Of a stretch of DNA of 64,000 bases, positions 16,201-28,200 are shown in pieces. The notes beneath the pieces were generated by a model. That model was not told the origin of the DNA. It worked only from the letters and a program-made list of their open reading frames with translations, and did no database searches. The translations under genes were made by a program, and so were the position numbers. The first letter of the stretch is position 1. Each line of letters opens with the position of its first letter. This stretch comes from Iphione sp. A-MEVVRFRX5 (Eukaryota): contig OZ320314.1 of the NCBI GenBank assembly GCA_976226885.1, forward strand, positions 116,188,001-116,252,000. The letters are read 5' to 3'.

Positions 16201-19200
16201 TGTCTAATATCACTCAATACTTCATTCTTAACAATAACAGAATCATATCTCTTACTCAATAGTCACTTTTTTATATAATTTCTAGGAGCGTGTGGTAAGT
16301 AATAGATTTATCTTACTCAAATCCAATTTGTTTTGGTCAGATTAAAAATGGTTTGCTCTTAGCTACCTATTAAAGCTCTGAAAATATTATGGGATACTCA
16401 CTGTTGCTGTAAAAAAACAAGTATGCTTTATGTCTATGAACATTCAGTAAGATAATGAAATTCTTCTCTCCTGCATCAGCTAATGCTCTGAACCAAACAC
16501 TTTTGAAGGCAGTGGCATACAAAGACTTATTTACTGAAAATCTTAGTGTGAATAAAAGCTGATTTTAGGATTTCTCTCATGGCCTTCTCTCATCTTTTTA
16601 TGGTACCATTAAGTATTATAAACATTTGCAATTTGGTAAACTGTAAGAGAGTCATTTAATCAATATAGAAATATTGATGCTTGCACATCTATTCCAACAC
16701 ATCTTTTTCACACTGAAACAGTATTAATTAGTTGCTTTTAAAATTTAGTCTTTTCAAGAATTTCAAAAAGTTTGCTGTATTCTATGGAGTCATGTTAATA
16801 TAAATCCTGTCTGAAAAAATAGTTTCAGGTCAAGCTAGACAAGTTCAAGAACATGTAACATTAATGTATTGACACTGTAAATCTGCTTTTACCTAATATC
16901 TGTCAGTGTGTGCGTGAAGGTGTCTAGTGACGAATGTGAATTACAGCTAGTATAAGTTAGTCATGGAAAGCCAAACAAAAATATTTCTTGTAGTAACAAT
17001 CATTCAGACATTGCATCTTGACCAAATGTTCTTAACAATAACAGCTGGTCACATATTTTTGTTCTTATTTCTAGAAGCGTGCAGTAAGTAATAGCTTTAT
17101 CTTACTTAAGTCATTTTTTTTTCTTTAGATTACAATTAATTGACAATTAGTTGACTATTGAAACTTTTGACAAAATGACCCACTTCTTTTCTATAAATGC
17201 ATTTGGAATGATGAGAACAGGAGTTGGCAAATGATTTAACACACTGTATCACTTATATCCATTTTTCACTCAGTAGGATATCTTATGAACATATTTTTCA
17301 ATTATTTTGTTAAATCACATCCAGTCATTATAATAATGCGGTACATTCATATGGTCATTCAATAAATATGAGTGCATATGTGCTGGTTATATTAGTAGGT
17401 ACAAGAGTCAGGCAGAAGGTCAGATACCTTCTATTTTTCTTACGGACATCCTAAGCTCAAAAATTTTGGCATGAAATGATTTATGAGACAATTTTAAGGC
17501 AAGTAGCTTAGACTCAAATGCTTTAGCTTGTAACCCGACAACTCAATAACAGTTATATTTTCTGTTTTTCATCTTTTCAAGAGCATGATGGGAGTAAGTG
17601 TTTTTCTGTTATTTTTCATGTATGTGTGATATGTTAACATAAGTTCTTTGAAACATTCAGAATCAATCTTAATTAAACTGCAAAACTATAAAATTGAAGG
17701 TTATAAGTGCACACAAGTTATGAACATGGATGTTAATAGCTTTTTTCCTTAATTTGTTTATAATCAAGTGTAACCATAGCTTGAAAATGCATACAAAAGA
17801 TTTGAACACAGACTTCAATAGAGTTTTGCTAAATTTGTAACTGATTGTGTGTAATCATAACCTGATTTCTACAACATGAGCATATCTCATTGTTTTCAGC
17901 CTGCTGGACTAGTAAGTATTTCATGACCCATTTCTTATATCAGTGAAAGCGAAAAATAGTAGTACCATAGAGGTAGTGTTGCTCTAGAACACTTTATAAC
18001 AGTTGCTTTCAGGTTCTCTTAATTTTAAGAATGTCCTTTAAGTCTAGTGTTTGTTTGGTACTGTTTAATACATTTAAAATGTCAACATAAATACCATGAT
18101 ACATTCAGAATTAATCTTGTTAAATATACCAAGACTACAAACATAAGAATAAATACATGCAAGATATGTACTTGGCCATCAACAGCTTTGTAGTCAATTT
18201 TCAAAGATTAACTCTTATTGTAACTTAATTTGTACAATGAGTGTATCTTTCTTTTTTTAGGCTGGATCAGTAAGTATTTTTTCTCTCAAATTCTTGTATC
18301 ATTCAAAAAGAGGAAAACTACTGCGTTAAGAGAATTTTGTCATTTACACTGAATAGATTATGTAACAAATAATACACCATGCATATGTTCTTCACATCAG
18401 GCCTTTATTACATAGAGCAGCAGCAGAGTATACAGTCATTCACAAGTGAGTCCCACTGGGGACGTGCACCTCTTTCCTTATATACACCTTGATGATGTAA
18501 ACATGCTAACAGAAGTATGTGAAACTCGTTGCATTATCTTAAAGGATGTCCTGCAGACATTACAAGATTTACTACCCATTGTGTAGGTTCTGTCCAGGGG
18601 TAGGATCAAATGTTAATTAGCGACTTCTACACATTATTTCTAATCATCACTTCATTAACAAGATAAGGAACAACATGTTTACAACTGTGGAGCTTCACGT
18701 ACACCAATGAAAAGATTTAACTATGCCTTAACAAAAGGACCATTCTTACAACTTATATCTGTACACTTTACATACACAGTACTCCCTTTTGTTTGCATAC
18801 AACAACTTACTACAAATAGTACTGTGTTACAATTAAAGACCAATATAAATCAGAAAGGAAAGGTTAAAAGTCATTGGAATTAAGTTTTTGGGCTAAGAGT
18901 ATAATATATTACATTTAGCAGAGATTAATATACATTGGTTTATCAAACCTGTACAAATCATCCAAAGGTGCCAACAAGTTAGTTAAGGAGATGAGTTCAG
19001 GCTGATGTACAGAAACACTGTTATAATTTTTCACTGCTGCTGATGTACACATAGCACATCAGCCAGGCAGGCAAGATGTCAAATTGATGCACTGATGGTC
19101 TCATGTTGACACATTAATACAAACTCACTGATGCATGTATGGAACATGCCTCAATGAATAATAGTGGCCTTGTCAACTGAGTCTCACCCTATGAGAGAAG

Positions 19201-25200: not shown

Positions 25201-28200
25201 CAGATTATCATATCAGTCTATGGTCTTGCATGTTATGGCAAACAATAGATTATAGTATAAGTCATAACCTACTAAGTATATTTTATGAATAGATAGATCA
25301 GATATTCTTTCAAATCATATCCAAGACTTATAAATATGTAGGACATTTGCATTGTCATTAAATAAATGTGAATGCATACTTGTTAGTTACCTTGGCAGGT
25401 ACATGAGTCAGGTATCATCTCAAGCTTAAGCCTTTTGTCATAAAAATATTTATAAGACTATTCTAAGTCAAGTAGCACAGACCCAAATCCTTGCACTTAT
25501 AACTGGACAAGTCAAGAGCAGGTATGCTTTCTGTGTTTATTCTTTTCAAGAGGACATTTGCATCGGTAAGGTAATTTTGTAAGTTGGTAAAATACATACC
25601 AACAAGACAGAAAAAGCTTAGGTTTTAATAGGCTTTATTCGGATTTCCCAACATTTTGGCTTCATATTCCAGTTTTGAAAGGTAAATATTGCAAGTTATT
25701 TCTTGCTGAAGTACTCTTTTGGACCAGTTAAAATCCTACAAAGGATTCTATGTAAAGCTAGTATTTGATTGGAGAAATGCCACTTACCCTAAAAAAAGTA
25801 GCTTTTGTTAGTTTACTACATATCTATATGAAGTTTAATATGACTTCTATGAAAAATTTAGGATTAATTTTTATAAATTGAACAAGAATGAGAATGTGAA
25901 GGGATATAAGTACATACAAGATATAATCTTGACTTGTCAATGATTGAGTGTTACCCATAGCTTGATTTTTACAATATGAGCATATCTCATTTTTAACAGC
26001 CTCCACTAGTAAGTATTTTATGACTCATTTTCTTACATAGTTAAAATGGGAAAAAAGTACTCTATAAGGAGAAATGGCCTATAACAGCAATAACAGCAAT
26101 TTTTTTCATTTCTCTTCTTTTCAAGAGTGCACTTTTAGTCAGTAGAATATTTTGCTGCATTTTGACACATATACTAAATGTCAACATAAGTACCAGGAAA
26201 CATTAAGGATTAATCATGTTAAATATACCATTACTATAAATGTAAAAACTTATAAGTACATGCAAGACAAATATAGCTTTCTACTTCATTTGTCAATGAT
26301 TATGTGTAAGTTCGTTATCTTGATTTTTACAAAATGAGTATGTCTCATTGCTATTTAGCCACCTGGAGTAAGTATTTTAAGACTCATTTTCTGATATTAT
26401 TCAAATGGAAAAATAGTACTATTTAAGGAGAATTGCTATATATCAGTTACAATAGTGGTTTTTTCTGTTTCTCTTCTATTTAAGAGCTTACTTATAGTGT
26501 GCAGTCAATCTTGCTATTTTATAATATGCATAAAATGTCAACATAAGTACCATAATATAGTCATAATTAATCTTCACCAAGACTATAGACATAGAAGTGT
26601 CTTTGTACATGTAAGACACAAACATGGTCATTAAACACTTCATAATATTTGATTTCAATAATTGAAAGTAATTCCACCTTGGTTTCTACAATATGGGGTT
26701 TCTCTCTTTCTTTTATCCTCCAGTAACTAATTCATTACCTTTTCTCTTGTATTATTAAATTGGAGAAAAAGTTTTGCATTGAGAAAACTTTGTTGCTTTG
26801 ACTGGAAAAGATAAATAACTAATGGAGGATTCGAAGTCGTTGAAACTGAAGTCAGTTAATCGGTTATGGGTGTACTACATCATACCAACCACACATTAGT
26901 ATACACAGCTTGATCTAACCTCTAACCTGTCCCAACAAGTTTAATGTAGGAGCTATACACATTGTAGTACATGCATTTAATTTTTCCTGAGTTTGGCCAA
27001 TGTGTCATTTGTGCATTTTGTCAGTGTGCCAGTGTATCTGTGTTGTAGCTGTTCATATGGAACACAATTCATTTGTACAGGCTGATGCACAGTCATACTG
27101 TTGTACTTATGCACGGCTGCTGATGTACCCAGAGCACATTAACTGTTTAGATAAGATGTGGTATAGATGCACTGAGAGCTCATGTTGATTCATTCATGCA
27201 CACACTAATGCAAGCAATTTGTGTTGTTTGTAGCAATTGAGGGACTGACCAAGTGTACATAAAAGAATCCTGTGATTGAATTCAAATTTAATGTGTTACT
27301 ATTTCTTCCTGAAGTCTTGTTCTGTGAGAGTTTACATTCAGTTGTCTACTTGTCTTGTTTCGCCTTGGAAAACTAAGAAGGATGATTCAAAATAAAGACT
27401 TGATTATACAGATATTACCAGAAGTTAGAAAAAACATCTTCAATCCTCTTTAGAAGTAGAGTATGGCCTGAACTGCCTAATGGCTTTCTTTTTCTGTGTG
27501 ACTTGTGCATTACCAGTGGAAAGTATTTGATTTGGGAAATGAACCCAAGCTTGATAATAGGAAAACTAAGTAGAATATTGTTTACAATGTCTAAAATATA
27601 ACAGAAGTATCTTGATCAGTGAAAATAATATGGTATTTCCAAAGTTTAGAAAGGATATGTCTAGTATTGATGAATAATGTTAAAACAATTTCGCTGTATA
27701 TATGTATATATACAGCAAAAGGAAAACATGGCTAGATCCATCCAACACAAAATGCAAAAAAATCCCAAAACCCCCTCCCCCCAACATTTATATACAGTTG
27801 AATGTCTATTTGCGAGCACATCAAGTTGAGACCATTCTTGCTAATGCAACCACTTGTGCTGGGATCAGTGGTGTCCTCATTGTTCACAATAACTGAATTG
27901 CAACTCATCATCATCATGGGGTGCTGTCTTTATCATGAAGGTGGGCTGCCATGATCCTCCAGCTCCTACAATTTGGTGCCTTCCTAGTCAAGTCATCATA
28001 TTTCTTTATTCTACTCCATTCCTTTTGTTGTTAATCCATTCTGCTCTGGATCTTTCTCTGCATCATTTTCCATTTACTTTCCCTTCCAATAGCAGTCTCT
28101 GTACATTATTTCTTCTACTTGCAACTATTTCACCAAAACCACCAGTTGAGTTTGGCTAGACAGGCAGTGGCAAATTGGCATTCCACTGTACGTACATTAT

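Follow-up and report, generated by a model that had tools for sequence, protein, structure and literature searches.

Predicted micro-exon genes for secreted proline- and glycine-rich peptides in Iphione sp. and the history of a module repeated within them

Genes A and B in the analyzed window

We analyzed a 64,000-nucleotide stretch of contig OZ320314.1 from Iphione sp. A-MEVVRFRX5 (assembly GCA_976226885.1, positions 116,188,001 to 116,252,000), hereafter the window, in which an initial annotation had noted that the same exon order and long introns recur at 16286-18269, 23377-26367, 54573-57388, and 58036-63410. These modules fall in two separate genes, A and B, which are predicted to encode secreted products from micro-exons and whose signal exons lie at 10212 and 39312. 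Our best reading is that both belong to an 11-copy, lineage-specific family encoding gland-secreted proline- and glycine-rich peptides, with an architecture like that of the micro-exon genes (MEGs) of flatworms. Coordinates are those of the window, and the gene features described in it lie on the plus strand.

Gene A opens with an inverted CCAAT box (ATTGG, 10075-10079) and a TATA box (10114-10119), both placed by alignment of 11 paralogs, followed by a predicted signal-peptide exon of 20 codons (10212-10271), recognized by eye from its hydrophobic core and ending in a phase-0 donor. Two micro-exons follow, WYKK (12 nucleotides, 14315-14326) and GL (6 nucleotides, 14712-14717), the latter identical in all 11 genes. 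The first module, A1, would then contribute ERV (16286-16294), an exon of the xRV class and the source of the P4 arginine of a putative cleavage site; KRA (17075-17083), of the KRx class and the source of the dibasic pair; SMMG (17582-17593), of the S class, with an AAG acceptor; and a proline-rich (P-rich) pair, PAGL (17900-17911) and AGS (18261-18269). The initial annotation ended this module at 18269, but it extends to 22012 through a second P-rich pair (PAGL, 21639-21650; AGP, 22004-22012) that duplicates the first (17782-18360 and 21533-22103, 79% identity). Between the modules lies a chimeric junction (22901-23376), in which sequence like that of the last intron (22901-23092) gives way from ~23095 to pre-xRV intron sequence. 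Module A2 comprises VRV (23377-23385), KRG (24414-24422), RTFAS (25551-25565, donor GTAAGG), and the P-rich exons PPL (26000-26008) and PPG (26359-26367); a further PP exon (26717-26722) is dead, its acceptor AG having been lost. The stop exon (28260-28315) encodes two arginines and a stop, which with the preceding glycine form a predicted amidation signal, and the terminal non-coding exon (28680-28815) carries AATAAA at 28810-28815. A homolog of 28673-28839 at 5-180 represents the 3′-terminal exon, within the untranslated region (UTR), of an upstream paralog, gene Z, the remainder of which lies left of the window.

Gene A and its flank also carry repeats. An insertion at 19180-21030, between the A1 P-rich pairs, contains part of a DDE_1 transposase (Pfam E 4.7e-15, 20149-20535), a 31-nucleotide minisatellite occupies part of the first intron (11069-11252), and a 155-nucleotide tandem duplication of 99% identity lies upstream of the gene (7635-7947).

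Gene B begins with a predicted signal-peptide exon (39312-39371) and a GL micro-exon (41991-41996). Its first module, B0 (44927-48801), is headless: it has six P-rich exons and lacks an xRV exon, a KRx exon, and a live S-class exon. It includes a recent tandem duplication of 2.55 kb (45742-48288 and 48277-50845, 97.5% identity). The next segment (51783-57773) finds its best matches in gene Z (71-83%) and holds module B1, with ERV at 54573, KRA at 55517, SMMAL at 56776, VLGA at 57009 (with a weaker donor), and PPGL at 57377. Module B2 (58036-63410) is partly decayed. The exon in its xRV position (58036-58044) reads EHV and has a dead donor, ATAAGT; RRA at 62588 and PPG at 63402 are live, the donor of the S-class exon at 63155 is dead, and the last exon lacks an acceptor. 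The stop exon falls shortly beyond the right edge of the window, at 65195 in window-extended coordinates. The 4.5-kb length of the long B2 intron, which had been taken as a recurring feature, comes from an insertion bearing reverse transcriptase (RT) sequence and not from inheritance. Decayed RT fragments resembling those of long interspersed nuclear elements are spread over 59500-61300 of this intron, which separates the xRV and KRx exons.

Self-comparison of the window aligned the four named stretches mutually at ~67-80%. We then compared same-class pairs among the four modules, using four intron classes and 300 nucleotides upstream of xRV, with 25 nucleotides cut from each intron end. In this test 29 of 30 pairs aligned, at 66-86% identity and best E values of 9e-65 to 6e-4, the exception being the A1-A2 intron between the S-class and P-rich exons; control comparisons gave 3/190 matches against intergenic segments and 1/27 against reverse complements. 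The recurrence reported by the initial annotation is therefore real, and the introns and upstream flanks are homologous, contrary to the outcome that had been set beforehand as its refutation. The four modules are, however, two in each of two genes, the fourth has decayed, and the headless B0 makes a fifth. An AG acceptor and a GTAAGT donor frame the exons at 16286, 17075, 17582, 17900, 18261, 23377, 24414, 26000, 26359, 54573, 55517, 57377, 62588, and 63402.

An 11-copy family in two clusters

Across the genome we found 11 terminal exons of this kind, five in a cluster termed C2 (genes Z, A, B, C, and D) and six in a cluster termed C10 (genes g1 to g6), together with one short match on C11. 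A search for the xRV/KRx pattern returned 14 places, all inside these two clusters, while the control pattern returned none. Copies from C2 and C10 are only ~75-82% alike and fall in separate groups, and on these grounds the idea that the two clusters reflect haplotype duplication was rejected.

The predicted gene consists of a TATA box, a signal-peptide exon, 8-14 phase-0 exons of 6-21 nucleotides, a stop exon, and a polyadenylation exon. Ten of the 11 genes were modeled and curated; g3 was omitted on account of the stop that closes its signal exon. These models have 10-16 predicted coding exons each, and all 121 of their internal exons are 6-21 nucleotides long, a multiple of three (3n), and in phase 0, curation having removed dead and non-3n candidates. 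S-class relics with GTCAGT-type donors (e.g., at 26126 and 57133), many of them non-3n, were also excluded. Nine of the models predict precursors of 48-76 amino acids that are free of cysteine after the signal. Under an operational definition of MEGs (seven or more exons, half or more of them shorter than 70 nucleotides and 3n, in a run of at least four; 10.1101/2020.04.08.031872), the predicted genes classify as MEGs.

The length pattern also emerged from a length-blind scan. Its splice-site matrix had been trained on 22 exons of the window, which belong to C2; C10 was not used in training. In the sense orientation, 61 of 72 candidates in C10 were 3n, as were 45 of 49 in C2, the training source, compared with none of five antisense candidates. 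Other parts of the gene are conserved as well. In a promoter alignment of the 11 paralogs the TATA box is intact in nine and altered in B and g3, and most copies keep both the TATA and ATTGG boxes. The first exon encodes a basic-hydrophobic stretch of 20-22 amino acids conserved in 10 genes; a Pfam search with the signal exons of genes A and B gave no match. All 10 located copies of the stop exon have a stop within the first three codons, as does gene D, against a background chance of 0.15 per copy for copies that are not independent; the codon-3 stop has changed in D, g1, g2, and g3, each of which has an earlier one. In all paralogs the stop codon lies ~45-50 nucleotides 5′ of the last intron, near the usual distance for nonsense-mediated decay. 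The AATAAA of the terminal exon is invariant in all 10 aligned paralogs. A coding role for this exon was rejected, as indels between paralogs are not multiples of three.

Several observations weigh against functional genes of this design. All the exons are predictions from sequence, and many of those in the C2 genes are dead, with AG or GT lost. A search for RNA over 10100-20000 listed no holder, a result that weighs in neither direction. Part of the family is decaying, with early stops in g3 and Z in addition to the dead exons: in gene Z a stop lies within the first micro-exon, so that the product ends at 21 amino acids if this exon is used, and g3 (L034) combines the stop in its signal exon with an altered TATA box while keeping intact splice sites in most micro-exons, which makes it a likely pseudogene. 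S-class and stop exons depend on AAG acceptors, and the pyrimidine tract of the stop-exon acceptor is weak. Finally, the ratio of nonsynonymous to synonymous differences (pN/pS), pooled pairwise over few and related codons, is 0.64 for the signal exon and only 0.70 for xRV exons.

Such features could mean that we are dealing with a segmental repeat, decayed or non-coding, in which splice-like sites survive as relics and no peptide is made today. The dead exons in the five C2 genes and the early stops in Z and g3 favor this view, as does the fact that paralogous sites are not independent. We nevertheless consider it highly improbable, because the AG/GTAAGT cores, 3n lengths, KRx arginine, GL exon, TATA box, stop, and AATAAA have all been kept despite ~25% intron divergence, and because in nine of the 11 genes the exon chain is still open from the ATG as far as a late stop. 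In genes built of phase-0 exons, dead exons may be tolerated because phase symmetry keeps the frame after any rearrangement.

Duplication history of the module

In every second module of the C2 genes (Z2, A2, B2, C2, and D2), the 1.5 kb preceding the xRV exon matches the final intron of the gene, ahead of the stop exon. These matches end at 587-624 of one reference intron, and in the four copies shown pre-xRV sequence takes over at one common alignment column. The chimeric junction was present in five of five second modules of the C2 cluster and absent from all seven first modules that were tested. Because the five genes have this junction in common and the first modules lack it, we regard a single, inherited tandem duplication of ~4-5 kb, preceding the expansion of C2 to five genes, as likely. 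Trees of the xRV and KRx flanks resolve few of their inner branches (3/14 and 4/13 starred), and for that reason the claim rests on the junction.

In the C10 cluster, five genes have one module each and g6 has two. The duplication in g6 is independent of the C2 event: its breakpoint differs, falling on the acceptor of the stop exon (position 706), and the flank of the second KRx exon clusters with C10 copies (95/96). In this gene (L026, ~C10:116794280) the stop-exon acceptor is fused to an xRV exon, so that a GRV exon stands between two NFGL exons. The predicted peptides, ending in F-G-L with an amidation glycine, would be reminiscent of allatostatin-A type amides.

Gene B, which holds three module remnants, is a chimera of paralogs, because its signal region groups with gene C (100/98), its UTR with gene Z (100/100), and 51783-57276 has its best match in Z. 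Its B0 module is A1-like (78-80% to A1) and has lost its xRV, KRx, and S exons. The extra module was gained through recombination between paralogs.

The initial annotation proposed that precursors change in copy number by duplicating whole modules of several kilobases, each adding a cleavage site and a peptide. This is right in kind and overstated in frequency, as the C2 modules trace to one old inherited event and not to four events or a continuing series. In its strong form, with ongoing duplication tuning the number of peptides per gene, the proposal is quite improbable in our judgment. Module number does vary, from one in five C10 genes to two in g6, with its own breakpoint, and three remnants in B. 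Against this, a single junction recurs in the five C2 second modules, and modules have diverged by ~25-30%, as deeply as the genes themselves. The only recent duplication (45742-50845, 97.5%) spans a P-rich exon pair and, like the 79% P-rich pair duplication in A1, adds no cleavage site. Each module does add a site and a peptide in A and C, but this fails in the other three of the five C2 genes, where the second site has been mutated, reduced by half, or deleted. On balance, we think it quite likely that these are micro-exon genes for small secreted multi-peptide precursors in which a multi-exon module was doubled once, before the genes multiplied.

Predicted processing, products, and relatives

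Together, the xRV and KRx exons spell R-V-[K/R]-R, which is the consensus for furin and related proprotein convertases (PCs). Codon 2 encodes arginine in all 15 KRx exons (pN/pS 0.35) and in 14 of 17 xRV exons, with histidine in Z2, B2, and D1; D1 has also lost its KRx partner. P-rich exons have a pN/pS of 1.69. The downstream intron flanks of xRV and KRx exons align to each other with a mean score of 38, compared with 16-17 after shuffling and with 54 and 41 within the two classes; upstream flanks past -25 are barely above shuffled sequence (18 versus 15). Because this intron flank is homologous in the two classes, xRV and KRx exons are probably duplicates of one 9-nucleotide exon with a central arginine, which would place two arginines three residues apart. 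The initial annotation did not note that this furin-type site is split over two exons of probable common origin. Similar kinship of flanks links the exon groups p1/GL/p5, p2/p3/p6, and P/AGx.

An R-x-[K/R]-R site is present in nine of the 10 curated models, in line with precursors of the multi-peptide prohormone type. Two full sites are kept only in A and C among the five C2 genes: the second site reads EHE then MRA in Z2 and is reduced to a dibasic RR in B2, and D has one site. A glycine followed by basic residues or a stop ends the product in A, B, C, Z, and g6 and is absent from D, g1, g2, g4, and g5; in A, B, and Z a PPG exon supplies it, in C and g6 the stop exon.

We propose that splicing would join the signal exon, 8-14 phase-0 exons, the stop exon, and the polyadenylation exon into a message for a precursor of 48-76 amino acids, and that a furin/PC-type convertase, as the motif suggests, would cut after R-V-K-R. 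The products would be cysteine-free proline- and glycine-rich peptides of ~10-22 amino acids, several with a predicted C-terminal glycine-basic amidation signal. From gene A these would be a short N-terminal piece, a peptide of ~22 amino acids rich in proline, glycine, and alanine, and an amidated peptide of ~11 amino acids. With all exons in phase 0, the reading frame would survive the duplication, loss, or exchange of an exon, an exon pair, a module, or half a gene, and homology was indeed seen at the scales of exon, exon pair, module, and gene. Proline and glycine make up 23-40% of the low-complexity Pro/Gly/Ala products. A collagen-like reading was rejected, as glycine is not spaced in strict triplets. 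A check for bioactive motifs found no C-terminal motif common across the genes.

The predicted signal peptide, the dibasic and R-x-K-R sites, and the glycine-basic C termini of A, B, C, Z, and g6 would also suit lineage-specific neuropeptide or hormone precursors acting inside the animal, as would the F-G-L ends of the predicted g6 peptides. Neuropeptide genes are usually low-copy and conserved. Here, there are eleven recent tandem copies with fast birth and death of exons, at least one clear pseudogene, a P-rich pN/pS above 1, and mature peptides that lack a conserved C-terminal motif across genes, and we therefore judge an internal signaling role unlikely. An exocrine effector family, acting in defence, venom, mucus, or pheromone secretion, is favored over a conserved neuropeptide because of the recent tandem expansion, the turnover, and the contrast between variable mature regions and a fixed processing site; on sequence characters of this kind, we give such a role about an even chance.

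The products could instead be structural or adhesive secretions of mucus, tube, or cocoon. Their low-complexity composition, with 23-40% proline plus glycine, would fit, as would the Tyr/Lys-rich exons in Z, A, and C, which are reminiscent of marine adhesive peptides. Precursors of only 48-76 amino acids, predicted to be cut into pieces of 10-22 amino acids with amidated ends, speak against this possibility, as does the fact that the Tyr/Lys exons are absent from the C10 genes and dead in B, and we consider a structural role improbable. In gene Z (L052-L053, window-extended -16551 to -15717) these exons are three in tandem, each of 18 nucleotides and encoding a Tyr/Lys-rich hexapeptide, with single homologs in A and C.

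Among known systems, the proposed family most resembles the MEGs of schistosomes and tapeworms, described as having secreted products, runs of tiny 3n exons, and exon duplication (10.1101/2023.06.21.545858; 10.1101/2020.04.08.031872; PMC4350168) and, in tapeworms, as forming tandem arrays that share an N-terminal signal motif (10.1101/2020.04.08.031872). These architectural traits are predicted here too, in a host that is probably an annelid and not a parasitic flatworm, and no homology to flatworm MEGs is claimed. The exons here center on 9-12 nucleotides, whereas 15 is given as typical in Schistosoma mansoni, and they encode predicted convertase sites and amidation signals, of which the accessible portions of the MEG papers give no account. 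Protein variants arising from exon skipping are also part of the MEG definition; here such skipping is a hypothesis. The aphid bicycle genes (10.1101/2021.09.24.461719) likewise form a large family of secreted products that evolves fast and has many micro-exons of one phase; their exons are in phase 2, unlike the phase-0 exons here, which places these genes outside the bicycle family, and the products here are cysteine-free after the signal and apparently cut into short peptides.

Other secreted-peptide genes are alike in single respects. The helokinestatin/natriuretic precursors of anguimorph lizards (PMC13709620) have tandem proline-rich peptides in a region that has been duplicated, deleted, and diversified; here there is no natriuretic or folded domain, peptide and site are each spread over several micro-exons, and homology is not implied. 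The sea anemone 8 (SA8) toxin genes (PMC10210398) are clustered and have small exons (3-5 microexons), and the nasonins of Nasonia (PMC2853521) show precursor growth through exon duplication. Both encode Cys-rich folded domains, unlike the products here, and nasonins have one exon per domain and no processing signals, in contrast to a block of 5-7 exons with its own cleavage site. A literature search, largely without subscription papers, found no family joining micro-exons with multi-peptide processing, and no matching annelid peptide appeared in the accessible part of PMC13311285.

Micro-exon families have been described mainly in parasitic flatworms and aphids; this one is apparently from another phylum and coupled to peptide processing. 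We hold only tentatively that a MEG-type family arose independently in an annelid, with a furin site derived from a three-codon exon duplicated in tandem (x-R-x twice giving R-x-x-R) and with exon skipping that switches cleavage and amidation on or off to give a combinatorial peptide library. If so, a splice-encoded library of secreted effector peptides would result when xRV, KRx, or P-rich micro-exons are skipped. The introns appear to record how the precursor was assembled, with exon doubling giving the site, exon pairs a longer peptide, and the module an extra peptide, and with recombination between paralogs. Standard annotation easily misses such genes, and similar secreted-peptide families may be widely overlooked.

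Sequences around the two clusters were also inspected. An SLC6 exon flanking the C10 cluster has its best named identity with Capitella teleta (69%), compared with 61-65% for molluscs and ~60% for spiders, which is weak evidence for an annelid host. A flanking host open reading frame (ORF; L046:954-1769) encodes a proline-rich, receptor-tail-like sequence; a homolog search with it gave none at E<=0.001, and weak Atlas leads (<0.8) point to a semaphorin cluster. Between genes C and D (L006-L014) lie ~90 kb of mobile elements, including long terminal repeat retrotransposons with env-like ORFs and a Polinton-like element, and similar env-bearing elements occur at L050 and L057-L058.

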